From: Escherichia phage CAjan | Direction: 5' to 3' (one strand) | Sequence record: KP064094 | Length of the DNA: 59,670 bases | Shown: positions 2,107 through 52,798 of the stretch, one piece after another | Layout of the letters: the number at the start of each line of letters is the position of its first letter | Position numbering within the stretch: the stretch's first letter is position 1 | Translations under genes and position numbers: made by a program | Notes under the pieces: generated by a model | Seen by the model: only the letters and a program-made list of their open reading frames with translations | Told to the model about the DNA's origin: nothing | Databases searched by the model: none

Positions 2107-3603
2107 ATGGGTATTGATGCAACTCACCCGCTATATGATAAGTGGAAGGATGCATGGGTCAAGTGCAACGACTGCTATGAGGGTGAAGATAAAATTAAGG
2201 AAGAAGGTGTTAAATATCTACCGCCTTTAGCTTCCATGATTATTGATGGGATGAATAATCCTAATGATTTGGGCTTTCAACGTTGGCTCGCTTATCGTCT
2301 GCGTGCTAACTTCCCTGACGATTATTCAAGTGCGGTTACAAACAATTTAGGTCTGCTACACCAGAAGCCTCCTACAATTCAGCTTCCCCCTGAAATGGAA
2401 TACATGCGGGAGCTGTGTACTGCGGACGGTGAAGATATTATTGCTCTGCTACGTCGCATCAACGAAATGCAGTTAAAAAATGGACGTTTGGGGCTGCTGC
2501 TGGACTTGCCGAAAGGTGAGGATGTAAATAACAGACCTTATATTAGCGTTTATGATGCTTTATCCATTATCAACTGGGATGATGGTAAAGATGAATTGGG
2601 TAATATCAACTTGAACATGGTTGTTCTGGATGAAAGCGGCCCTGTACGTGTCAATCAGTTTGACTGGAAAGAAGAGAAGCGTTATCGCGTTCTACAATTA
2701 GGTCCAATGGACACAGATGAAGTTGCAGGTGGGGCGGTCTACTCCCAACATCTGTTTATTAACAATACCAATTATGATGAAGGGCAAATGATTGCTCCTT
2801 ATTATAAAGGTAATACGCTGGATGAAATACCTTTCCAGTTTGTCAATACAACAGATATTACCCCAGCACCGGAAGCGCCTCCATTGTTGGGTCTTGCTAA
2901 CATTTGTCTAAGCATGTACCGAAGTGACGCGGATTACCGCCAATGCTTGCATATGCAGGGTCAGGATACTTTAGTTGTTGTTGGTGGTTCCATGGAAAAT
3001 GGAGATAAATCCCCTCAACGCATCGGACCTGGCGCTGTCATTAACGTTGCTATTGGTGGTGACGCTAAATATGTAGGTCTTAGCGGTGACGGTTTGTCCG
3101 AGCAACGTCTCGCACTGGCAGCGGATAAGCAAGAAGCCCAAATTAAAGCCGGGCAAATGGTAAACAACACCAAGAGCACGCAGGAATCAGGCGAAGCTAT
3201 GAAAACGCGTATTGCTGCGCGTACAGCTAGTTTGATTCGAATTGCGTATACTGGTGCGGCTGGTTTGGAGAACTTGCTGAAGGTTTGCGCTAAGTGGATG
3301 GGTGCGGATCCCGAGAAGGTTGTGGTTAAGCCTAATCTTGAATTTACCAAGAGCATGTTTAACGGTCAGGACTTTGTTCAAATTATTACTGCACGCAACC
3401 TTAAGGCTCCGATTAGCTTGCAGTCTATTCATGGCTGGCTTGTTGATCAGGGCTTAACCACACTAAGCTTTGAAGAAGAAATGGCAATTCTTGAAGAAGA
3501 GCTTAAGAAGTGGCCACTGCCAGATGATGCTAAAGCTGATTTAAACGCAGAGCAGCAAGTAAGCAAAGATCCTAAGGAAGACAACGCTTCCGATAAAGAA
3601 TAG
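2107..3603 (+). CDS. portal protein
   Basis: 498 aa, strong SD (GGAGGG), directly downstream of terminase; size, acidic C-terminus and position typical of portal. Confidence 0.7.
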   Translation: MGIDATHPLYDKWKDAWVKCNDCYEGEDKIKEEGVKYLPPLASMIIDGMNNPNDLGFQRWLAYRLRANFPDDYSSAVTNNLGLLHQKPPTIQLPPEMEYMRELCTADGEDIIALLRRINEMQLKNGRLGLLLDLPKGEDVNNRPYISVYDALSIINWDDGKDELGNINLNMVVLDESGPVRVNQFDWKEEKRYRVLQLGPMDTDEVAGGAVYSQHLFINNTNYDEGQMIAPYYKGNTLDEIPFQFVNTTDITPAPEAPPLLGLANICLSMYRSDADYRQCLHMQGQDTLVVVGGSMENGDKSPQRIGPGAVINVAIGGDAKYVGLSGDGLSEQRLALAADKQEAQIKAGQMVNNTKSTQESGEAMKTRIAARTASLIRIAYTGAAGLENLLKVCAKWMGADPEKVVVKPNLEFTKSMFNGQDFVQIITARNLKAPISLQSIHGWLVDQGLTTLSFEEEMAILEEELKKWPLPDDAKADLNAEQQVSKDPKEDNASDKE

Positions 3604-3698
3604 TTGCAACTTCCAAGTTGATCGGTTTATATTAACGAACACGGGGCTGGGACGGCTCAGCTCCAAAAACGTCACACGGGTGACAACGGAGATAAGAA

Positions 3699-25682: not shown

Positions 25683-27668
25683 TTAGGCGTATCCCATGTC
25701 TTCGAGATACTTCTCTGCTTTAGCTATATAAGCATCATAATCTATGTCGTCCGGTATTTTATCCGGTAGCGTCATGATCGGGACACCTCCCGCACTACCA
25801 GCTACACGGTTGCCCGAGTTGGCATAGATTATTTCAGGTGTTTCTTCATTAGTGCTTAAGTACCAGCGTACAACCTTACCCAAAAATTCGCCATTCCATA
25901 CCGCGCCACCTTTTACCGCACGTAGGATAATGAATTTTCTAATATCGTTGCAATTGCGTATAGTACGAGAAACAGGCGTACCGTGGGCCAAACATTCACA
26001 TACAGCTTCCATAATAATTTCACCAGTACAGTTCTTTTGAAGACCTGTCTTTGCGAACCAGCCTTTACGCTTGATTTCAACATTTCCTTCCTCGTCAGGT
26101 TCTTTTACTGCAACATAGTTATTGACGTTAGCACTGTACAGCTTGTCATAGTAGTTGGATTCCATTTCAAAACCTGTTACGGATTCCCACCACTTGATCA
26201 TATTATCAACGAAGTCCTGCATGTGGTCTGGATACTTAACCACAATGCCGTCCGTGTTAGCCGAAATTACTTTAACACCATTCAACTCAAATGCTTCAAT
26301 AAGCATCAACAGTGATAGCTGCCCTGTTAATGTAACTTGTATCAATAATTGCGGCGCGTAAAGGACAGACCACATAGACCCCAGCTTACCAAACGATCCG
26401 TTAATAACGATCTTCAGCGTGTTGGCTGTGTTCTTGTCTCCGCTGTGCTTAGCTGCAATACGGCGGTCTACAATACTTTTATAAACACGAAGGAACGCTG
26501 GTCCCAACTGTTCTGGATATAAGCCCTGATTAAGAATGATTGAAGGATAATAAGACGTTACGTCAATGTCCCGCTTTTTGATACCAGGCTCTTTACCGTG
26601 GCCAGCACACTCTTCGGAGCTATGTAAACCACCAATACCCATACGGTAGACACCGTCTGCAATCTTGATCTCAAGACCTGTTAATGCTGGAGGTAAGCTG
26701 ACACCACCGTTATCGCTAACAATAAAGCGACAGTCCCGAACAATATCCAGAACACTATTCATCAAAGGTGTTTGAAAACGAATAAAGTCCGGTATGTTGT
26801 ATGCATACTTTGTTCCAGGATAAACTTGCGGACGCTGTGGGCGCACGCCCGTTAACGCTTGGATTTCGTGCTTAATTACGTCTTCTGCAATCTGTGCATC
26901 GGAGCGTGAACGTAGATCCACACCGTATTCTTGCGACATAATTTCACGCAAGTGAATAGGCTCTTGCAATGCAATAAAACATTCTTCTGTTTGTACAAGG
27001 TCGTTAATACAGTACCAGCGTACAATTAACATCTGGTCCTGCGTTAACATGGTATTGGGTTTGAACGGTAAATCCTGCATACGTCGAGTATGTACACGTC
27101 CGCCGTATTGTTTCAAACCGCCGGACCCAGGCAGCACTTCCATGATATCAATGTGGTTAACGTTCTGCATACGCTTGAGACGGTAACTTTTCAATACATC
27201 CGAAGGACGCCAGTCTTCAACGATTATCTTATCGGTCGCGTCTTTAAGCTGCGCATTAGAACAGCCGTTAAGCGCAAGCGTAGCAATGGGCATATCGTAC
27301 CCGTTACCGTTAAAGCTCACGATAAGGAAGTTTGTCATCACCCAGTTAAGTAATAAGCAATTCAAACTACAACCGTGATACATCTCGAAGTAGACAACTT
27401 TCTTAGTCCTTACTCCGCGGAATGCAATCAAGAAGTAGTTTGGATAACATTCAATATCATATACAAGCGGTTCGCGGTTAATCCATGCTTGAATAAGTTC
27501 GTCCTGTGTGTACAGGTTGTATTGGAAGTTCCGCGCTTCCTCAAGATTAGGCAAATAATCCGGGCGCTCCCAAGTGCGCTCAGGCGGTAAACGTTTAACC
27601 TTTTCTTTCTTTGCTTTTGGCTCAGGCGGTAAGTCCTGCCAAAAGAAACCAATAGCATCTGTCCGCAT
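25683..27668 (-). CDS. DNA polymerase, family B
   Basis: about 662 aa from ATG 27668; family B motifs DVTSYYPSII (motif A), KIVINGSFGKLG (motif B), ANTDGIVV (motif C) and N-terminal YDIE exonuclease-like motif. Confidence 0.8.
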   Translation of the reverse strand: MRTDAIGFFWQDLPPEPKAKKEKVKRLPPERTWERPDYLPNLEEARNFQYNLYTQDELIQAWINREPLVYDIECYPNYFLIAFRGVRTKKVVYFEMYHGCSLNCLLLNWVMTNFLIVSFNGNGYDMPIATLALNGCSNAQLKDATDKIIVEDWRPSDVLKSYRLKRMQNVNHIDIMEVLPGSGGLKQYGGRVHTRRMQDLPFKPNTMLTQDQMLIVRWYCINDLVQTEECFIALQEPIHLREIMSQEYGVDLRSRSDAQIAEDVIKHEIQALTGVRPQRPQVYPGTKYAYNIPDFIRFQTPLMNSVLDIVRDCRFIVSDNGGVSLPPALTGLEIKIADGVYRMGIGGLHSSEECAGHGKEPGIKKRDIDVTSYYPSIILNQGLYPEQLGPAFLRVYKSIVDRRIAAKHSGDKNTANTLKIVINGSFGKLGSMWSVLYAPQLLIQVTLTGQLSLLMLIEAFELNGVKVISANTDGIVVKYPDHMQDFVDNMIKWWESVTGFEMESNYYDKLYSANVNNYVAVKEPDEEGNVEIKRKGWFAKTGLQKNCTGEIIMEAVCECLAHGTPVSRTIRNCNDIRKFIILRAVKGGAVWNGEFLGKVVRWYLSTNEETPEIIYANSGNRVAGSAGGVPIMTLPDKIPDDIDYDAYIAKAEKYLEDMGYA

Positions 27669-28621
27669 TAGACACGTTCTCCAATTAACACACCGCGAAG
27701 ATTTTCCCCAAAGAATGCGCAAGGTTGCGGATATAAACTAAAGTCCGCAGTCTTAACCACATTTTCGAGTAATAACAGGATGTCGATATTGTAAACTCCC
27801 GTTATTGATCTGTCCTGCAATACGAAGCTTGCACCTTCTGCATCATCGTAATGAGTACGCGCTAGACCGTTTTCAATATATACGCGAGGACGATCTTCCG
27901 CAAAAGGTTTAATTTTATGCAAGCCCTCAAAAAGACCTGGATCAACAGGATGTGCATTGCATTGAACATTTAAAATACGACGAATATCGGGCCACTCCGC
28001 ATCAATAAGCTGTGTTCGCAACCAGCGACCTTCCGGATAATGAAACGTCACATTGTTCTTGCTAACCTGAATATGTGTCGGGTTAGCTTTAATGCGCAGT
28101 ATTTCTTTAATAGCAACAGACGGTATTATGCAGTCAATAGGGAATTGATTACCAAACCAATATTCCGCAATGGTGACGTTATTTGTAGCAAACAGGCTAC
28201 CGTTATTAATTAGAATACCGCAAGCCCACGGGCGGGATGCATCTGAGCCTACAAACGGAGCAACGGACTTCACACCATGAACGAAGCGAGCCCCATCTAT
28301 TTCGTATAAATCACCTTCAGGGAATACGTGAGGTGTTTCCTTGTCAATGCAGCGTATAGCAACACGAAACGGTCCGGACTTGATATTAAGTTTACCGTTA
28401 GCCATCATTGTTAACTGTACGGTTTCGTCACAGTTTGAAATAGCTTTAATCATAGGTCCAGCTTCGGGCTTGCAATCAATATCCAGCTCAATAGGACTAC
28501 CCAGTGCAATAACACCGTTGAAGCCCTGTACCTGTCCATCACGGATAAGAAAGCTGGTAAGCCCTTCTACCAGTTCCTTCTTCGCTACGGAGCCTTGAAC
28601 AAATTTAAGAGCGTCTAACAT
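27668..28621 (-). CDS. DNA polymerase sliding clamp (beta-clamp/DnaN-like)
   Basis: 317 aa; resemblance to bacterial DnaN segments (IKSGPFRVAIRCIDKETPHVFP and QLIDAEWPDIRRIL, cf. DnaN LVDGRFPDYRRVL); immediately upstream of the polymerase. Confidence 0.6.
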   Translation of the reverse strand: MLDALKFVQGSVAKKELVEGLTSFLIRDGQVQGFNGVIALGSPIELDIDCKPEAGPMIKAISNCDETVQLTMMANGKLNIKSGPFRVAIRCIDKETPHVFPEGDLYEIDGARFVHGVKSVAPFVGSDASRPWACGILINNGSLFATNNVTIAEYWFGNQFPIDCIIPSVAIKEILRIKANPTHIQVSKNNVTFHYPEGRWLRTQLIDAEWPDIRRILNVQCNAHPVDPGLFEGLHKIKPFAEDRPRVYIENGLARTHYDDAEGASFVLQDRSITGVYNIDILLLLENVVKTADFSLYPQPCAFFGENLRGVLIGERV

Positions 28622-38040: not shown

Positions 38041-38949
38041 TCAATCTTTCCCGTAATAATTAGCTACTTGATAGTTTTGACAACCAACTTTCTGCCCTTG
38101 CGTATCCACTGCGGCGGAATGGAAATTGCAATACCATGTTCCATCTTCTTTTGGTTCAAGGAATTGGCATGTGCGGCAGTTTACTTCCGGCATAGTTTTA
38201 CGCCAGCATAGTGAGGAGTGATCGCACCATTTACATTCGAAGAAAGTGGAATCTTTAAATGCGCGGTCCGGAATATCTGTAGCAATAGCAATCTGCACAC
38301 CACGATCAATATACATGTCCGCGGTAACAGGATCAAACGGAATAATTTCTGCGTAAACTTCATCGTCATTCTTGTTTACTGCAAGATATAACGCTGCGCC
38401 AAGACCTAGTTTTCGCATATACACGTTCATCTGTACATAGTGCTCAGGTTTAGCTTCTTTGACACCTTTAGCTTTCAGCTTTTTAAAAGACTTATCGTTA
38501 TGCGTCTTCATTTCGGTGAGCACGGGCATCCCAGGCTGCACGTCCGGACAACCTATAACCACACCATCACAGGAACCGCCAAAGTGTCCGCCAGCTTCGC
38601 TGATACGGAACTGGTGTCCATTTTCGTCCTGCTGATAGACCTGCATACCTGCCGCAAGAAGCATAGCAATGAAACGCGCTTCTTCCAGATGTCCGCGGTT
38701 AAACAGTCGAAGCTGGCGTCCGTCAAACTCTTTGCGTGTAGCCCAGCGATATCCATAGAAAAGCTTGCGTGCGCATTGCTGCCCAATAAGGGAAGCGCCT
38801 AAGTGACTGCGGTTACCGCTTTCAGGGCGATAAGCGTCTTCAATTGTGGGAATGACTACGCCAAGATACTTACGGTAAGTCCCACCCTGATCTTTTTGCA
38901 CACCGTCATTGATCGCTTGAAGTGTTTTTTCTGCAATATAAATAGCCAT
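38041..38949 (-). CDS. PD-(D/E)xK family exonuclease (RecB/Cas4-like with C-terminal Cys cluster)
   Basis: 302 aa; D...EMK core (CDGVVIG...LTEMKTH), YVQMNVY segment and four C-terminal cysteines (CKWCDHSSLC...CRTC). Confidence 0.55.
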   Translation of the reverse strand: MAIYIAEKTLQAINDGVQKDQGGTYRKYLGVVIPTIEDAYRPESGNRSHLGASLIGQQCARKLFYGYRWATRKEFDGRQLRLFNRGHLEEARFIAMLLAAGMQVYQQDENGHQFRISEAGGHFGGSCDGVVIGCPDVQPGMPVLTEMKTHNDKSFKKLKAKGVKEAKPEHYVQMNVYMRKLGLGAALYLAVNKNDDEVYAEIIPFDPVTADMYIDRGVQIAIATDIPDRAFKDSTFFECKWCDHSSLCWRKTMPEVNCRTCQFLEPKEDGTWYCNFHSAAVDTQGQKVGCQNYQVANYYGKD

Positions 38950-38961
38950 TGGAATACCTTA

Positions 38962-38988
38962 GAAAAATAAGCCGTCTTTCGACGGCTT
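38962..38988 (-). terminator. intrinsic terminator downstream of ssDNA-binding gene
   Basis: AAGCCGTC-GAAA-GACGGCTT followed by ATTTTTCT on the minus strand. Confidence 0.6.
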
Positions 38989-39014
38989 ATGGACACTACA
39001 GAGGGAGGGTTATC

Positions 39015-39902
39015 TTACTGCTGCCACGGCGGGACTGCTGCTTGTGCCGGATGCGGTTCAGCTTGCTGCTGGGGCTGAGCTTGCTGCTGAGGTGCTGCTG
39101 CCTGGCCCGGCTGTGCTACCTGCTGCGCCCACGGCTGCTGAGCTGCTTCCTGTGCTACTGGCTGTTGTACCGGAGCTTGCTGCACTGGCTGCTGTGGTGC
39201 TGCGTTTTGAGCAGGATTATCCCACGGCTGCGGTGCGGCATTCTGCCACGGTTGTGCTGCTGCGCCCTGCTGTGGTGCTGGTTGCTGCTGCACAGGCTGC
39301 TGAACTGGCTGCTGTTGCTGCACCGGAGCTTGCTGCTGTACAGGCGCTTGCTGTTGCTGTGCAAACGGGTTAGCTGCTGGTTGCTGAGGTGCTGCGCCCG
39401 GGAAAGCTGGCTGCTGTGCTGGCGCACCTGCACCGAACGGGTTAGCTACTGCCGCTTGAGCACCCATTGCTGGAGCACCTGCTTCTTTTTCTGCATACTT
39501 AACCGGATCGTTGATGTTAGCATAACCGTTAGGCTCGTTGCTGTCTTCATAACCTTCCTGAGAACGAACTTTCAGACGCAGGTTCAGCGGAATGTTATGC
39601 AGTTGAGCAGGAGTATCCCAGCGAATTACGCCAACCGCATGGGAAAGCGCGCCCAGTTGTTCGTATGCAATACGCACAGTATCTTCGTTGTCGTTGATAA
39701 CGTTGTAACGAGCAAAGATTTTACGACCTTTAGCAAAACCATCAATGATGCTAAACGTTACCTGGATCGCCATACCGCCATTTTTGGTCGGTTTAAATTC
39801 AGATGCTTCAATTACTGCTTTATACCAACCTTTCGGCAATGCGCCGTAAGAAGGTGCTTGATAGCTGCTCGCGTCAAAGTGGAAATTAGTTGGCATAGTC
39901 AT
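39015..39902 (-). CDS. putative ssDNA-binding protein (DUF669-like) with Q/A/P-rich low-complexity tail
   Basis: 295 aa; globular N-terminal about 110 aa, then a long Gln/Ala/Pro-rich tail encoded by CTG/CAG-rich DNA; next to AAA ATPase as in Sak4-type recombination modules. Confidence 0.45.
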   Translation of the reverse strand: MTMPTNFHFDASSYQAPSYGALPKGWYKAVIEASEFKPTKNGGMAIQVTFSIIDGFAKGRKIFARYNVINDNEDTVRIAYEQLGALSHAVGVIRWDTPAQLHNIPLNLRLKVRSQEGYEDSNEPNGYANINDPVKYAEKEAGAPAMGAQAAVANPFGAGAPAQQPAFPGAAPQQPAANPFAQQQQAPVQQQAPVQQQQPVQQPVQQQPAPQQGAAAQPWQNAAPQPWDNPAQNAAPQQPVQQAPVQQPVAQEAAQQPWAQQVAQPGQAAAPQQQAQPQQQAEPHPAQAAVPPWQQ

Positions 39903-40630
39903 TAGTTAATACCTTTCATTTTGTTGATAACAGAACCTAAGTGTGGGACTTCAACCGCATCTAAACGTCCCGAACGATCCTTAGCGATTGTATTAAAGTC
40001 CGGTTGAGTTTGCAAGTAACGATACGAGTTACCTTGCTGATCCTTATTTACATTCAGACGAAATACTTCGTCGAAGAAGTAAGGGAGCATTTGCCCCAAT
40101 TTGGACCCAGGCATAGATGGAGCATACGCGGTAACACCGGAGACTTCATCTTTGTCTTTGCCCATTTTAGCAGACATATAAACATGTTTGCCAGGAATAT
40201 CGCGAAACTTACGGATCAGATCTTGCATCTTTTCAAGCAAAGTACCATAAGCTTGACGAGGATCTTTCGTTCCCTTTTTCGCGTTGTTTAAACATTGTTC
40301 AGCAATTTCGCTCAAGCTGTCAAGTGCAATAGAATCGAAATACTGCTGGTTAGCTGGAGTTACACACCACTGATAAGCCGCTTCAACGTCTTCCAGACAT
40401 TTCACTTCAATTACCGGAATATCGTAGACGATGGGCAAACCCATGTTACCATAAACACGGTTAAGGTTTTCCGCTGCAATAGACAACAGACCGGATTCTG
40501 CGCTGATTAAAATTGGTTTAGGTAGTGTGGCTACAAGGCTGGTTTTACCCATACCTGCTTCACCGTAAACCAGAATTTTAACACCTGTGTCCTGCACAAC
40601 TTGTGAAGACATTTTAATTTCAATGGCCAT
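39902..40630 (-). CDS. AAA ATPase (Sak4/RecA-like recombination ATPase)
   Basis: 242 aa; Walker A GEAGMGKTS near N-terminus and Walker B-like hydrophobic-D segment. Confidence 0.6.
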   Translation of the reverse strand: MAIEIKMSSQVVQDTGVKILVYGEAGMGKTSLVATLPKPILISAESGLLSIAAENLNRVYGNMGLPIVYDIPVIEVKCLEDVEAAYQWCVTPANQQYFDSIALDSLSEIAEQCLNNAKKGTKDPRQAYGTLLEKMQDLIRKFRDIPGKHVYMSAKMGKDKDEVSGVTAYAPSMPGSKLGQMLPYFFDEVFRLNVNKDQQGNSYRYLQTQPDFNTIAKDRSGRLDAVEVPHLGSVINKMKGIN

Positions 40631-43769: not shown

Positions 43770-44010
43770 TTTTCTATCCTCTGTTGTGTTTCGATGTATG
43801 TATAATAGCACATCCATGTGACAGGGCAAGACTCAATTCGTATCAATTAATCTTTTTAAACGGATTAGTAATCTAGCAACCTTCCTCCATTCAGCATCCT
43901 CCATTAATGGTGAAGGCTTATACGCTTCAGGTATCGGACAAGGTATATAGGGTTCCATGTCAGATATTACTTGCTTTGATAACTTTTTCTTCCGTTTACC
44001 CATAAATAGC

Positions 44011-44676: not shown

Positions 44677-45144
44677 TTATTGGATTGAACCGCGATCAAT
44701 TAACCATTGTTTCGCGTGCGCTTTAAAGATAATGCGGTAGTCATCGAGACTAATTTCCGCGCGGATGGAATCTTTAACTTCATACCACTGCCATTCACCA
44801 TTACTGAAGACAACCGGATTAAGCGGTAGAACGACCTTCCATCCTTTACGTTCTATTTTATACATCAGAACTGGATATCTGCCAAGCTCTTTAGCAGATT
44901 GGACAGTCTGCTTCCACCATGTGTTTACTTGTGGCGTAGCATGGTTTTTTACTTCAACCGCATGGTGGCATGTATTGCTGATATCACAACCACCGACAGC
45001 ACTTTGATTCTGGTTTCGCTGAGCAATAGGTTTTTCCGGTAACTGCATCCCCAGCTCTGCGTAGATTTCGGCATAAATTGCATTAAAGAAATCACATACT
45101 TCCCGCTCACCGCGTTGACCTTTAGCGCGAATATTTACTGCCAT
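44677..45144 (-). CDS. putative Holliday-junction resolvase-like PD-(D/E)xK nuclease
   Basis: about 155 aa from ATG 45144 (SD GGAGA); RGEREV...GGCDIS...AVEVKN pattern resembles Hjc/VRR-NUC type nucleases. Confidence 0.45.
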   Translation of the reverse strand: MAVNIRAKGQRGEREVCDFFNAIYAEIYAELGMQLPEKPIAQRNQNQSAVGGCDISNTCHHAVEVKNHATPQVNTWWKQTVQSAKELGRYPVLMYKIERKGWKVVLPLNPVVFSNGEWQWYEVKDSIRAEISLDDYRIIFKAHAKQWLIDRGSIQ

Positions 45145-45215
45145 GTTTGTCTCCATAACTTTAATGTAAAACACTTCATAAAGAATTTTATATTGAAGTT
45201 ATGTTGATCGCAAGG

Positions 45216-45249
45216 AACAAAAAAGCCCAGGCATAAGGATTCCTGGGCT
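45216..45249 (-). terminator. intrinsic terminator
   Basis: GCCCAGG / CCTGGGC stem followed by TTTTTTGT on the minus strand. Confidence 0.5.
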
Positions 45250-45561
45250 CTCTTGATTGTCGGATAGCTTACTTTGACTGCCGTCTTCGTCTATCCTGGC
45301 CTACTTGTACAGCCTCGCCAAAGGCTGGTGACGGTTTGGTACATCTGGCGCCGTCTCGTTAAACATCGTTTACATCGTTCAGTAAGTTGCGGGTTTATCC
45401 TGTCCGCTCCAGGAAGCCCAGCGAAAGTAGTTGCTGTAAGGAGGTACAGCTACCGCTTTCAAGGGCTTGAGTTAAGCATCGTTCACTAAGTTAATGTTGT
45501 TAAATTGTTAAACCTCGTTAACTGTGGTTATCTTAAAGGATGCAGTCTTGAATGGCAAGCT

Positions 45562-45879
45562 TCAATTTTGCGCGGTTCCCTTTGCCGCTTTTGGTGCTAA
45601 AGTACCGTCGTCTAACATCAACTCAAAACCTGTTACTTGATCGGTTGGAACAATAGGGTAATTCATAATAGCCATGTGGATACGATTCCCTCCGTCACAT
45701 TCATCGATGTATTCATTACCCCAATAGTATAAATGACCATCTCTTCGAATATCCATTGCTGTTGGGAAATCTACAAGAATTCTTTTGATTTCTTTTCGTC
45801 CTTCTTTATGTAGATTAGTTTCAATACGGATAAGCTCCGCATAAATTGCTTCACAGATAGTGTTTACAATACTCATCAT
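45562..45879 (-). CDS. hypothetical protein
   Basis: 105-aa ORF with SD AAGGGG. Confidence 0.4.
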   Translation of the reverse strand: MMSIVNTICEAIYAELIRIETNLHKEGRKEIKRILVDFPTAMDIRRDGHLYYWGNEYIDECDGGNRIHMAIMNYPIVPTDQVTGFELMLDDGTLAPKAAKGTAQN

Positions 45880-46073
45880 TTACCCCTTAAGTTTTGAATC
45901 ATTCTATCACAGGCAGCTTTTACAGAAGAGTTTTGCCAGTCTTCCTCAATTTGTGAAGGTTCTTCAGGTGAATAAGCAGCACTAATCAAGCACTGATTAT
46001 AACCTTCAATATAAGCCTGTTTTGCGGTATCTACTATTGATTGTAAAGCGATATTGAATAATTGTTCAGACAT
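45876..46073 (-). CDS. hypothetical small protein
   Basis: 65 aa from ATG 46073 with SD GAGGTG; track ORF extends further upstream. Confidence 0.35.
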   Translation of the reverse strand: MSEQLFNIALQSIVDTAKQAYIEGYNQCLISAAYSPEEPSQIEEDWQNSSVKAACDRMIQNLRGK

Positions 46074-46314
46074 TTTACACCTCACAAAATATACATAAAC
46101 CAGAAATAACCAGCTACGAAAATAGCACCCGCAAATAATTTTAAAATCTCGAACATTGTTCCCTCCGTTAACTTTATGCTGTAAGTATAGCAGGACTTGC
46201 GATGTATGCAACAACTTTAGACTTGAAATACATCTATGAAATAGCACGATTTGCCTTTACCTCTGATCCGTCTAGCTGTACTATTAACCCATAAACAGAG
46301 CGGAGGATTACAAA

Positions 46315-46539
46315 ATGGTCATGCTGAATAAAGTATATAGCACAATGGGCGCGGATTATAAAGTTGTACGTCACCCGCGTACTGGTAAATTTGAAGCATA
46401 TATCCGTCCGATGGGTGAAGGTTGGATGTATTACGGTACTTATGACGACGCTGAGCAAGCTTATAAAGAAGCGGAAAGTGCCGCGGAAGCATCCGAAATT
46501 ATGGCAAGGTACGACGTTGATGATTACTACCTTAACTAA
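46315..46539 (+). CDS. hypothetical protein (isolated plus-strand gene)
   Basis: 74 aa, SD GGAGGA, own promoter-like element and bidirectional terminator; opposite orientation to all neighbours. Confidence 0.5.
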   Translation: MVMLNKVYSTMGADYKVVRHPRTGKFEAYIRPMGEGWMYYGTYDDAEQAYKEAESAAEASEIMARYDVDDYYLN

Positions 46540-46543
46540 CAAT

Positions 46544-46567
46544 AAAGGGCCAAATGGCCCTTTATTT
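46544..46567. terminator. bidirectional terminator
   Basis: AAAGGGCC-AAAT-GGCCCTTTATTT between convergent genes 46315-46539 (+) and 46566-48908 (-). Confidence 0.6.
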
Positions 46568-48908
46568 ATTCCTCTTCTCCTAAGTTTGCCATAATACCTT
46601 CAACATCTTGCGTAATGCGCCAAGCCGCGCCAGTGAATCCCAGTTTGATAGTCTCCTCCCGTGTTACCGGAACAAGGGCACCCATAGCAACCATCTCTTT
46701 GATTGTAGACTCAATTGCTGCGGACAATCCGTGGTGATAGTTTTTAAACGCGGACTTACTTGCAAGACGAGTAGTAATATCACCCCGCGTGATAATACCT
46801 TCTTTACGCAGATCTACACGTTTAACTTTCACCCAATCTTTAGTTAGATAATTCACACAAACCTGGCACATAGTACGGATACGAGCTTCGTCATTAGTAC
46901 CGATACCCCCACTATGCCATTCCTTCATAATGATATCCTGTCCATGACGCACAAAGTCCAAGGCCCATTGAACATGATAGGTCTGCACAACCGGATTGAT
47001 CCAGTTTTCTCCCACAGCTAACAGGGCGGATAGACGTAACACCTTCAGGTGCGCACGGTTCCACGGCTGGCGGATTGCTTCGTCTTTGGTTGCGTTAATA
47101 TTACGGTCGCATTCGTCGTTAAACTGATCACATAATGCTTCCGCATCCGGGCTAAACTGCACTTCAATACTTTGATGCTTTGCCATTGCGACTAAGGTGT
47201 GGTTAACAAGATGACACACCATATCCCGCAAATGCTGATCCATTGTAGTCTGCTGGTTCTTGTTTAAAGGTGGTCGATCCCCTTCATAGCGGACAACATG
47301 GAAACGGGATAAGAAACCATCCTCCATCATTTCACGCGTCAACGCTTCAAAAAACGTGTCCGGTGTCGTTTCGCCCATGATGCTATAGGCCACACCTTGT
47401 TGAGCTTCCGTATTATTAGCCTTATCAGAATAAGACATACCACCAACAATAGACATCTGACCGGACTTTTGATAAATATCGGTAAGGTCATTCTTGAAGC
47501 TTTGCATTGGTGAACCTGCTGGCGCCGTTGCCATTGCTTTAATAATCTTACCAAACTCACCGTTCAAGTTGATAAAAGATTGTTTGTCCGCAAAAGATTT
47601 ACGCAGTGCGGAGCCGGAAGCGCATCGGTCAAAGGATACAAAGCTATGAATCTGCGGAAACGGTTCCTGAAGCTGGCTAACTATATTAGATAGCCCACTG
47701 TTCAACGTTTCTTTACCAACACCAGAACGAGCAATAAGGACGAAATATCCATTAAGACCCGATTGCGGAATCTGCCAGACCTTCCCGCATACCCCAGCCA
47801 TAAAGCCTAGCGCTGTCACAATAGAAATTTCTTTCACTGGTCGGACGGAGGCTTTATAGATGTATTTCGCAAGCTCCCCAGCAAGCCCCGGCGGCCAGTC
47901 AATAGCGGTTGCATCAATAGATGTACTTTCTGCAACTACTGTCTGCCCCTGTGTTGTTTCAACAGTTACGGGCATTTCCGCTACCTGCTGCATTGCACTG
48001 TGTGCCGCTTGCATACGGGCAGCATAATCCCGCGCCAGCGCCGCTACGTTTTCCTGGGCAATGCGCTCACGCTCCATGCGACCGCGACACATACGCAAGC
48101 AACGGTCAATATGAACATTGTTCTTATTAGCCTTCTCACGTTTGCCCAGCGCACTATAACGGAACAGACGGCGACATTGCTCATTACTTTCCGTGTAGAA
48201 TGCATACATAGAGATAAGGGCAAGGTCTGCTTCAGACTGGGAAGGGAATCCCATTTCAACCCATTCACCGTTAAATAACCGTGCATACTTATCGCCGTTA
48301 TCCGCTTCAAGTGCACGCTGATGAATAGTTGCATCATCTTCTACCGGATCTTTTTCTACCAGTTCAATTTCATATGTCTTGCGCTGAAGATCAATTTCAT
48401 TCACAAGCATAGTAAGGTAATGATCACGTTCTGCAACTGGTTTGTTGTAGACGGGATTGCCCGTGCAGATAATAAAACGCTCCTGACTATAAACCTCGAC
48501 ACCATCACGTCGACGACCTTTACCGATGTTACCTCTTAACCACAGGTGGACACCCAGGCCTGAGCGACTTACTTCGGTGTAAGTATCGAACGCAGTCATG
48601 ATCTGTTCGAAGCGGCGCAACTGCTCTGGCGTCGTGTGCTTCTTGGGATCAGGTTCATTGGTTGCGTTCTTCACATCCAGGTCGATGCAGGTGAACGGGT
48701 CTTGTGCAGTAAGCACGAATCCAATATAAGGTTTATTAAAATGAGCGGCGCAACCTTTGGCAGCTTCAAACGTCATAAGCATATCCGGATCGGTAACGTC
48801 CGCCGCCATCAAACGTCCAATATCGCTATCCCATACCAACGGCTTTTTATCCGCATCGGCCACCGCCCATTGTGGGAAAGCTTTAATTTCAGCGGGAAAC
48901 AGTTCCAT
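46566..48908 (-). CDS. primase-helicase (archaeo-eukaryotic primase-type domain fused to P-loop NTPase-like domain)
   Basis: 780 aa; N-terminal AEP-like motifs (CIDLDV, SGLGVHLW) and central P-loop-like SGVGKETLNSG. Confidence 0.6.
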   Translation of the reverse strand: MELFPAEIKAFPQWAVADADKKPLVWDSDIGRLMAADVTDPDMLMTFEAAKGCAAHFNKPYIGFVLTAQDPFTCIDLDVKNATNEPDPKKHTTPEQLRRFEQIMTAFDTYTEVSRSGLGVHLWLRGNIGKGRRRDGVEVYSQERFIICTGNPVYNKPVAERDHYLTMLVNEIDLQRKTYEIELVEKDPVEDDATIHQRALEADNGDKYARLFNGEWVEMGFPSQSEADLALISMYAFYTESNEQCRRLFRYSALGKREKANKNNVHIDRCLRMCRGRMERERIAQENVAALARDYAARMQAAHSAMQQVAEMPVTVETTQGQTVVAESTSIDATAIDWPPGLAGELAKYIYKASVRPVKEISIVTALGFMAGVCGKVWQIPQSGLNGYFVLIARSGVGKETLNSGLSNIVSQLQEPFPQIHSFVSFDRCASGSALRKSFADKQSFINLNGEFGKIIKAMATAPAGSPMQSFKNDLTDIYQKSGQMSIVGGMSYSDKANNTEAQQGVAYSIMGETTPDTFFEALTREMMEDGFLSRFHVVRYEGDRPPLNKNQQTTMDQHLRDMVCHLVNHTLVAMAKHQSIEVQFSPDAEALCDQFNDECDRNINATKDEAIRQPWNRAHLKVLRLSALLAVGENWINPVVQTYHVQWALDFVRHGQDIIMKEWHSGGIGTNDEARIRTMCQVCVNYLTKDWVKVKRVDLRKEGIITRGDITTRLASKSAFKNYHHGLSAAIESTIKEMVAMGALVPVTREETIKLGFTGAAWRITQDVEGIMANLGEEE

Positions 48909-50969: not shown

Positions 50970-51452
50970 TTATGCGTCCAGACCGTGGTTGGCGTGAAAT
51001 TTGTAATGCTCTTCCGCTTGTTTACGGGCCTGTTTTGCGTCCTCTATAGTATCATATAAACCTAGATACTTTTTCAATCCGTTTATTTGAATGTAAGCCT
51101 GAAATTTACATGCCTTTTTATTAAAGTAAACTCCTGTTACTCCGGTAGAGTTATTTATTGCCCTGCTAAGATTTTTACTATTATCGCTTGGCAACACTAA
51201 GCGCAAATTCTCTATGCGGTCGTCCCATGTACAATGGTTAATATGGTCTATTTGATGTCCTTCCGGTATCGGGCCTTTATGCAACTCCCATACTAACCTT
51301 GAACGACGATATAGTTTTCCCTTGTATCCTATCAGGATGTATCCGCGCTTATTTGGTACACCAGCTTTACTACCGATAGAAATCTGTTTAGCTGGTTTTA
51401 TTTTCCAAAATAATTCTCCGTTTTGATAGCTGAAGATATTATTTAAGTCCAT
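50970..51452 (-). CDS. HNH homing endonuclease with AP2 DNA-binding domain
   Basis: 160 aa; HNH motif (HQIDHINHCTWDDRIENLRLV) and AP2-like segment (TGVTGVYFNKKACKFQAYIQINGLKKYLGLYDTIEDAKQARKQAEEHY). Confidence 0.7.
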   Translation of the reverse strand: MDLNNIFSYQNGELFWKIKPAKQISIGSKAGVPNKRGYILIGYKGKLYRRSRLVWELHKGPIPEGHQIDHINHCTWDDRIENLRLVLPSDNSKNLSRAINNSTGVTGVYFNKKACKFQAYIQINGLKKYLGLYDTIEDAKQARKQAEEHYKFHANHGLDA

Positions 51453-52653: not shown

Positions 52654-52798
52654 CGTGATATTGAATAGGCCAAAAGTGCTATTTTAGAATTGTTTTGCAT
52701 CTAGTGAAAATTATGCTTGCCTTGCACGTTTAGCACTAATGGCCTAACTAACATCACATTATCTGGAGTATTCGCGCGGGCGCACACATACATATAAG

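Follow-up and report, generated by a model that had tools for sequence, protein, structure and literature searches.

The canonical AP2/ERF domain (Pfam PF00847), known from the structures of AtERF1, WRI1, and TEM1, is strongly basic and contacts bases through Arg and Trp residues. In phages, AP2 modules are typically described as parts of HNH endonucleases, as in the HNH-AP2 homing endonucleases of PHROG 99. Phages also encode CasPRs, AP2-domain proteins from Bacillota prophages that act as sequence-specific transcriptional silencers and anti-CRISPR repressors and that need a cysteine-rich CapR zinc-finger domain in addition to AP2 (bioRxiv 10.64898/2026.02.23.707548). Here we consider a 74-residue acidic protein encoded on the plus strand at 46315..46539 of a 59.7-kb stretch of DNA from Escherichia phage CAjan (sequence record KP064094), hereafter the window, whose numbering is used throughout. 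We conclude that this protein is a divergent, stand-alone domain of the AP2 fold and that it is related to the modules with which phage homing endonucleases bind DNA. The window comprises an almost complete Seuratvirus (Queuovirinae) genome; Seuratviruses are coliphages with 7-deazaguanine DNA modification. Over the 2 kb surrounding the locus, the sequence shares 96.8% identity with Escherichia phage Seurat and the BASEL phage SeppeHuegi, and the open reading frame (ORF) is that of Seurat gp59 (AIW03922.1), a "hypothetical protein" that belongs to PHROG 22269, a family of no known function.

We assign the AP2 fold because of the matches of the family profile, the predicted structure, and the similarity to an HNH_3 endonuclease encoded in the same genome. 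When the family profile was compared with solved structures, the AP2 domain of WRI1 was matched at E 4.4e-6, ERF096 at 0.028, and AtERF1 at 0.04-0.07. A comparison of the same profile with 1.84 billion representatives returned few family members and then multi-AP2 proteins; those of the latter that were checked match Pfam AP2 at E 1e-13 to 1e-56. The AlphaFold model of the 74-residue protein (predicted local distance difference test score (pLDDT) of 77.6) has strands at residues 7-9, 13-19, 26-32, and 38-43 and a helix at 46-72. A three-stranded antiparallel sheet followed by a packed helix, the arrangement that defines AP2/ERF domains, is thus predicted, with the lowest confidence in the tail (pLDDT 45-56). 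The nearest relative within the genome is the module of the HNH_3 endonuclease at 50970..51452, with 47% identity over 36 residues (E 2e-5), and the family profile finds this enzyme at E 0.0036. Two results speak against the assignment. The Pfam AP2 match of the 74-residue protein itself, at 18.1 bits (E 0.0033), lies below the curated gathering threshold of 33.3 bits, and no significant PDB structure was returned when the model was searched with Foldseek. Among the homologs, the divergent P0005, P0007, and P0017 had no match in Pfam, and many uncharacterised phage proteins of 55-75 residues and similar shape are present in BFVD.

Compared with canonical AP2/ERF domains, the family is unusual in several respects. 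Its members stand alone at 65-74 residues, they are acidic (pI 4.1-5.1) rather than strongly basic, and most of the base-contacting Arg and Trp positions are replaced. They also have an additional conserved N-terminal strand (MVMLNKVYS in the window protein) and an acidic C-terminal tail. Compared with the CasPRs, with which it shares a phage-encoded AP2-family domain, the 74-residue protein of this virulent coliphage has neither a cysteine nor a second domain.

The gene is genuine, is fixed in the genus, and appears to form its own small transcription unit. Among seven close relatives, the variable columns of the ORF fall on codon positions 1/2/3 as 6/1/13, and the pooled proportions of synonymous and nonsynonymous differences (pS and pN) are 0.123 and 0.013, respectively. 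Because of this codon-position pattern and a pN/pS of 0.10, we consider the ORF to be real and under purifying selection; the N-terminal MVMLNKVYS is likewise kept at the protein level despite synonymous changes. The 102-residue ORF on the opposite strand (46234..46542) was ruled out as a true gene, its codon-position pattern of 13/1/6 being that of non-coding sequence. According to a simple ORF map and the SeppeHuegi annotation, the gene is embedded in a block of minus-strand genes that runs from ∼24 to 52-53 kb and includes DNA polymerase, queuosine-pathway genes, helicase, ligase, dUTPase, and primase. It is the sole convincing plus-strand gene of that block, the one further plus-strand call in the SeppeHuegi annotation being a doubtful 53-residue ORF. 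Its neighbors, all on the minus strand, are the primase/helicase on one side and, on the other, the gene for a 24-residue peptide followed by a gp58-like gene (45876..46073). An original prediction, made from the sequence alone, of a single oppositely oriented gene for an acidic 74-residue protein among minus-strand genes was therefore essentially right: the ORF, the orientation of the neighbors, and the charge (net −5, pI 4.64) were all verified.

The selection on this gene bears on whether it has a function at all. Since AP2 modules of phages are typically parts of HNH endonucleases, since the 74-residue protein has a weak match to PHROG 99 (HNH endonuclease; E 0.0022), and since the genome's own HNH_3 endonuclease is similar, the gene could be the decaying remnant of a free-standing HNH-AP2 homing endonuclease that has lost its nuclease domain and retains no function of its own. 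We consider this very improbable. The protein is conserved through synonymous changes at the low pN/pS given above, its length is stable across the family, and 33 of 34 genomes have it, as do diverged relatives. No HNH domain was found in it by Pfam, the AP2-like fold fills all 74 residues, and the flanking intergenic stretches of 157 bp and 26 bp leave no space for remnants of a nuclease. The real HNH-AP2 gene, by contrast, is found in only 3 of 32 relatives (WildeMaa, KS_A3, and KS_S4); its AT-rich composition (G+C content 0.383) and patchy distribution are behavior typical of a mobile homing endonuclease gene. What the two share is thus an AP2-type module, whereas the AP2-only gene is without the HNH domain, fixed, and syntenic.

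A moron, in the sense of the Hendrix-lab work on lambdoid phages, is an autonomous promoter-gene-terminator unit inserted between phage genes. The original prediction called the gene moron-like, and one part of this description stands: the gene has its own promoter-like site, ribosome-binding site, and bidirectional terminator, it is oriented against its neighbors, and the slot that it occupies varies between genera, being empty in Nipunavirus and filled with other cargo elsewhere. The other part does not, as the gene is not variable among close relatives. By tblastn, it was found in 33 phage records, 32 of them at 94.6-100% identity; the 33rd, Salmonella phage STP-SP5, has a syntenic 65-residue gene whose product is 48.9% identical over residues 1-45 (tblastn) and 40% identical over the full-length alignment. 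A primase search that defined a reference set of 34 phage records (primase at least 60% identical) gives the same picture, with the gene present in 33, always in the same position, and absent only from Hafnia phage yong3. Metagenomic homologs with 54-58% identity sit in the same place as well, again as plus-strand genes that meet the primase gene at its 3' end. Presence or absence among close relatives had been proposed as the check, and conservation in one position across all relatives, together with a housekeeping function, as the outcome that would count against a moron; of this outcome we observe the first half, the conservation in position. The base composition is native too, with a G+C content of 0.436 compared with 0.447 for the genome and 0.31-0.38 for the HNH gene and the small genes nearby. 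Because the phage is virulent, expression from a prophage does not arise. In Seuratviruses the gene belongs to the core set and is not a moron of recent acquisition.

The number and content of the genes on the non-primase side of the locus differ among relatives, and a sharp mosaic boundary is present at 46570: relatives such as SA80RD, Dru_SM1, and RCIP0359 match the window at ∼95% as far as the terminator, with identity falling to ∼72-78% within the primase gene. The idea that gene and promoter form a mobile module sweeping through the population was rejected because this drop in identity reflects the existence of two primase alleles (∼77% identical in protein); on the left, the block of high identity runs on through the gp57 homolog (45562-45879).

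Around the gene, the layout is that of a primase operon, a bidirectional terminator, the small plus-strand gene, divergent promoters, and the next minus-strand operon (Table 1). The terminator, as originally predicted, is well established. Its hairpin has an 11-bp stem with T-rich tails on both strands and folds with −16.5 kcal/mol on the plus strand (z = −4.65) and −17.0 kcal/mol on the minus strand (z = −3.51), values that no shuffled sequence equals. In STP-SP5 the stem carries a compensatory change, from GGGCC/GGCCC to GGGTC/GACCC, the loop varies among relatives, and the GenBank records of Seurat and SA80RD annotate the terminator on both strands. The final base of the hairpin is shared with the primase stop codon, the primase and AP2-like genes being convergent, and the hairpin insulates the AP2-like gene from the primase operon. 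The strong Shine-Dalgarno sequence that had been pointed out is likewise present, and its GGAGG is invariant in relatives.

The promoter of the original prediction fares less evenly. The motif, P(+), is present (TTTACC at 46256-46261 and TACTAT at 46279-46284, with a 17-nt spacer), but no more than 8 of its 12 positions agree with the sigma-70 consensus, so that it falls below the threshold of our promoter scan and is unlisted there; the scan also counted fewer promoter-like sites here than in shuffled sequences. On both grounds, the consensus match alone is not above chance. Conservation gives a different indication. Six lineages all keep TACTA in the −10 element, with no more than ∼66-73% identity in their intergenic DNA, although the −35 element varies among relatives (TTTACC, TAGACA, or TAGAGC), and no other plus-strand gene lies upstream to provide a transcript. 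P(+) may thus be a promoter, as a consensus-weak motif that conservation supports. On the opposite strand, the promoter-like site P(−) faces the gene for the 24-residue peptide and the genes beyond it; its −10 element is conserved and reads TATAAT in STP-SP5. As P(−) and P(+) lie on opposite strands, we take the 157-bp intergenic stretch to be a divergent promoter region. Known RNA families and tRNAs were searched for in the intergenic regions, and none was found.

Table 1. Position and basis of the features at and around the AP2-like gene in the window
Feature	Coordinates	Strand	Basis or remark
74-aa acidic protein, divergent stand-alone AP2/ERF-type fold	46315..46539	+	Seurat gp59 homolog, PHROG 22269
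Shine-Dalgarno GGAGGA	46302..46307	+	Read from sequence, 7 nt before ATG
Promoter-like P(+), TTTACC-17-TACTAT	46256..46284	+	Read from sequence; predicted
Conserved upstream blocks, candidate regulator or UP-element sites	46216..46255		Between the two −35 elements
Divergent promoter-like P(−), TTGCAT-16-TATACT	46184..46211	−	Read from sequence; putative function
Bidirectional intrinsic terminator	46541..46566	both	Folding energy, compensatory stem change, GenBank annotation
Primase/helicase	46566..48908	−	Pfam NrS-1 polymerase HBD match; annotated primase in relatives
24-aa hydrophobic peptide MFEILKLFAGAIFVAGYFWFMYIL	46082..46156	−	Unannotated; first gene of the divergent minus-strand unit
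Free-standing HNH_3 endonuclease with C-terminal AP2-like module	50970..51452	−	Pfam HNH_3 E 5.9e-16

What would such a protein do? Our tentative preference is for a regulator that binds nucleic acid, built on a stand-alone AP2-fold protein that would be expressed from its own unit. The protein, a small β-sheet packed on a long helix, is an AP2 domain without a nuclease and is related to the module of the HNH-AP2 endonuclease. The face of the sheet (R31, W37, the aromatic residue at 29, and K/R16) would bind nucleic acid, the conserved acidic C-terminal helix and tail would contact a protein partner, and the protein would act on the divergent promoters next to its gene or on the replication module that constantly accompanies it. 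We favor this possibility because of the AP2 ancestry, the retained face with R31, W37, and the aromatic residue, a conserved block in the control region, and the precedent of the CasPRs.

The family alignment gives some support to binding through the sheet. Invariant positions are M1, M3, L4, N5, Y8, S9, D14, R31, W37, A49, and E61, and R19 is retained in 5 of the 8 members. By the usual alternation of residues in a strand, the side of the sheet that corresponds to the DNA-binding one would present R19/L, K/R25, Y29, R31, W37, and Y39, a neutral to basic and aromatic surface, so that nucleic-acid binding by this face is plausible.

In the control region, two blocks lie between the −35 elements. 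The block TTTAGACTTGAAATACATCTA (46216-46236) occurs once in the genome and includes a short inverted repeat, TAGA...TCTA. By our count from the alignment, it has 18-19 of 21 matches in each of the five lineages with the AP2-like gene, compared with ∼11 of 21 in yong3, which is without the gene. With yong3 as the single gene-less comparator, this co-occurrence would make a weak argument for a binding site. The second block, ATAGCACGATTTGCC (46241-46255), is invariant in eight phages, and its core is retained in yong3. Either block could be the site of a regulator or an UP element. One candidate for an operator of the protein, ATAGCACGATTTGCC together with its near-repeat at 46187, was rejected: the 15-mer is not enriched in the genome, it is altered or deleted in gene-bearing phages, and its ATAGCAC is kept in gene-less yong3. 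The heptamer ATAGCAC occurs 15 times in the window against 7.6 expected, a number reached in 0 of 100 shuffles, and three of the copies lie within 46122-46343; their contexts look heterogeneous. As a separate observation, some copies directly follow a −10-like hexamer (TATAAT-AGCAC at 43805 and TAAAAT-AGCAC at 52676).

Several observations weigh against a regulator that binds nucleic acid. All eight family members are acidic, with pI 4.05-5.05 and net charges of −2 to −12, and even the sheet core carries a charge of +2 to −4, compared with +6 in the AP2 domain of AtERF1. The residues that, from the AtERF1 structure, we take to be its DNA contacts (including R162, W154, and R152) were mapped through a hidden Markov model alignment to ERF096, which shares the conserved contact residues of AtERF1. 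Among these positions only the equivalent of R162, R31, is invariant in the family, and the equivalents of W154 and R152 are lost. Furthermore, ATAGCACGATTTGCC is deleted or altered in the lineages L017 and L016, both of which carry the AP2-like gene, and no repeated motif fit to mark a regulon was found in the genome.

The same features fit an acidic inhibitor that binds protein, that is, a DNA mimic, counter-defense factor, or host-takeover factor in which the AP2 fold no longer binds DNA and the negative helix and tail occupy the nucleic-acid- or partner-binding site of a host or defense protein. The family is acidic throughout, with a C-terminal helix and tail of charge −4 to −9 in its eight members and a net negative sheet core in two clades; the canonical DNA-contact residues are mostly lost; and the gene would be transcribed independently. 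In yong3, PSTCR4, JenP1, and Kpn2-P2, unrelated small acidic proteins fill this slot, which suggests an analogous function. The original prediction had noted that such units often encode host-interaction or anti-defense factors, and to roles of that kind we see no link: the only homology is to AP2 DNA-binding domains, and no similarity to known anti-defense or defense-related families was found in Pfam or PADLOC. PADLOC-DB gave no matches for the 74-residue protein, its homologs, or the slot occupants, which is weak evidence as the database covers defense and not counter-defense. Whereas typical counter-defense loci differ between close relatives, this gene is fixed, syntenic, and compositionally native. 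Given the family-wide acidity, we nevertheless regard the role of an inhibitor or mimic as possible, if somewhat unlikely.

In all family members the gene is strictly linked to the primase 3' end, which raises the further possibility of a replisome accessory protein. Its aromatic sheet face would bind single-stranded DNA, and its acidic, aromatic-rich C terminus would dock, like an SSB tip, on the primase/helicase or on SSB-binding host proteins. In Escherichia coli, the SSB tip FDDDIPF mediates docking contacts of this kind (bioRxiv 10.64898/2026.04.29.721553). Conserved aromatic residues are present on the sheet (Y/W29 and W37, with Y, F, or L at position 39), the conserved acidic tail has an aromatic residue at 66, and the tails of the family read RYDVDDYYLN, QFDEPDYDFCY, SDFY, and CEF. 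The likeness to the SSB tip is, however, compositional only, the window protein ends in LN and not in an aromatic residue, and the resemblance lies in the part of the structure that is modeled with least confidence. The occurrence of the two primase alleles beside a nearly identical AP2-like gene also argues against tight co-evolution. An accessory role in the replisome therefore appears improbable to us. Overall, we rank the regulator first and the acidic inhibitor second, nearly as likely, followed by the replisome accessory protein and, last, the remnant.

Comparison with other genera shows that the position behind the primase is often filled by a gene of this kind. Small convergent genes lie directly behind the primase gene in Nonagvirus JenP1 (76 residues), in Craquatrovirus PSTCR4 (59 residues), and in the Nonagvirus-like Klebsiella phage Kpn2-P2 (95 residues). 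Hafnia phage yong3 keeps the gene for the 24-residue peptide, the divergent promoter region with its TACTA, and a terminator, and has an unrelated 102-residue protein in the slot. By our count from the translations, the slot proteins of yong3, JenP1, Kpn2-P2, and PSTCR4 are all acidic (net ∼−6 to −10). Homology of the AP2-like family to the slot proteins of JenP1, PSTCR4, and yong3 was looked for with hhalign, BLASTP, and Pfam and rejected, and an AlphaFold2 model of the JenP1-type protein was too poor for use (pLDDT 50.8). In Pseudomonas Nipunavirus JG054 the slot gene is missing, and the dUTPase gene follows directly after the primase gene. Because JenP1, Kpn2-P2, PSTCR4, and yong3 fill the slot and JG054 does not, the slot is ancient in enterobacterial lineages, and its content has been exchanged or has diverged past recognition. 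A broader proposal is that enterobacterial Queuovirinae and Craquatrovirus maintain a dedicated convergent slot immediately behind the primase/helicase gene, always occupied by small, strongly acidic functional analogs of varying ancestry that act on proteins and not on DNA, for example as mimics of nucleic acid or of the SSB tip that modulate the primase/helicase or blind host sensing of phage replication; the occupant in Seuratvirus would then be an acidified AP2 fold. We consider this proposal unlikely.

The other side of the locus has a history of its own. The gene for the 24-residue peptide, preceded by a GGAGGG ribosome-binding site, is unannotated in all GenBank records examined, and its protein sequence is kept in STP-SP5, L017, yong3, and SWJM-02. 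The last of these is a Felix-O1-like Salmonella phage. In SWJM-02 (OQ594353.1, ∼2900-3683) and in the likewise Felix-O1-like SPJ41 (ON868915.1), an insert of ∼0.8 kb beside an HNH endonuclease gene contains the Seuratvirus gene for the 24-residue peptide and the divergent promoter region (window 46077-46235) at ∼94% identity. In the middle of the insert is an ORF of 127 residues behind a related promoter-like sequence, ATAGCACAATTTGC-TAGACA-17-CATAGT; it belongs to PHROG 4301, a widely scattered accessory family also present in T4-like and other phages. The ORF is followed by a stretch (window 46277-46334) that covers the first six codons of the AP2-like gene together with its ribosome-binding site and −10 element. 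Where the BLAST alignments end, they run ∼10-12 nt into the Felix-native flanks, which suggests junctions at microhomologies, and the insert is evidence that the promoter region recombines. A Seuratvirus donor with the 127-residue ORF and the AP2-like gene in tandem had no match in viral contigs, and 12 metagenome matches for such a donor were dismissed as chance matches.

Other rearrangements were seen nearby. The junction between the gp57-like and gp58-like genes (45876-45880) is a hyperplastic site: in relatives L004-L008, small genes have been added or replaced between the two homologs (ORFs of 108, 112, 135, and 193 residues by annotated coordinates), and SA80RD and Dru_SM1 have an HNH endonuclease further left of it. 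A 45-residue protein, P0004, from a European Nucleotide Archive (ENA) contig of 1218 nt joins a gp58-like N terminus, MDQQLFNIALQAIVDTAKQAY, to an AP2-like C terminus, EEAESAAEASEIMARYDVDDYYLN. Because the gp58-like and AP2-like genes lie on opposite strands here, P0004 represents either a rearranged phage or an assembly chimera.

Elsewhere in the minus-strand block, a 387-bp stretch between two minus-strand genes (45175-45561) is without a convincing gene and has no Rfam match. Within it is a doubtful plus-strand ORF at 45274-45489, where SeppeHuegi and KurtStettler annotate a 53-residue ORF, and terminator-like hairpins are present near the two ends of the stretch (45111-45129 and 45572-45588). 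A 318-residue open frame on the plus strand (38949-39905) runs antisense to a minus-strand gene annotated in SeppeHuegi, has no Pfam match, and is probably spurious; it lies inside the sole 1-kb segment of the block with a G+C content above 0.52 (0.531), where the GC skew is positive. The ORF for the DNA polymerase β-subunit (27668..28621, 317 residues) is intact. No origin-like composition signal was found near 46.2 kb, the GC skew tracking the direction of transcription. Leads from the literature (Ksap1, retron Eco11, DRT10, and daunorubicin) were checked and found to be unrelated to the AP2-like gene.

Overall, the gene represents an unusual member of the AP2 fold, acidic and stand-alone, within an already catalogued PHROG family, and nothing here overturns current understanding. 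Recognition of the fold is new for a gene that is labeled "hypothetical protein" in every Seuratvirus record, and it provides a first testable handle on function, nucleic-acid binding versus protein mimicry. It also adds a case in which the DNA-binding module of a homing endonuclease has apparently been kept as a fixed, stand-alone gene, and phages seem to encode many small stand-alone proteins of this fold that are uncharacterised. A simple pattern also comes from the comparison, a conserved slot for small acidic genes behind the primase gene, and it could guide knock-outs in the BASEL phages Bas22 and Bas24.

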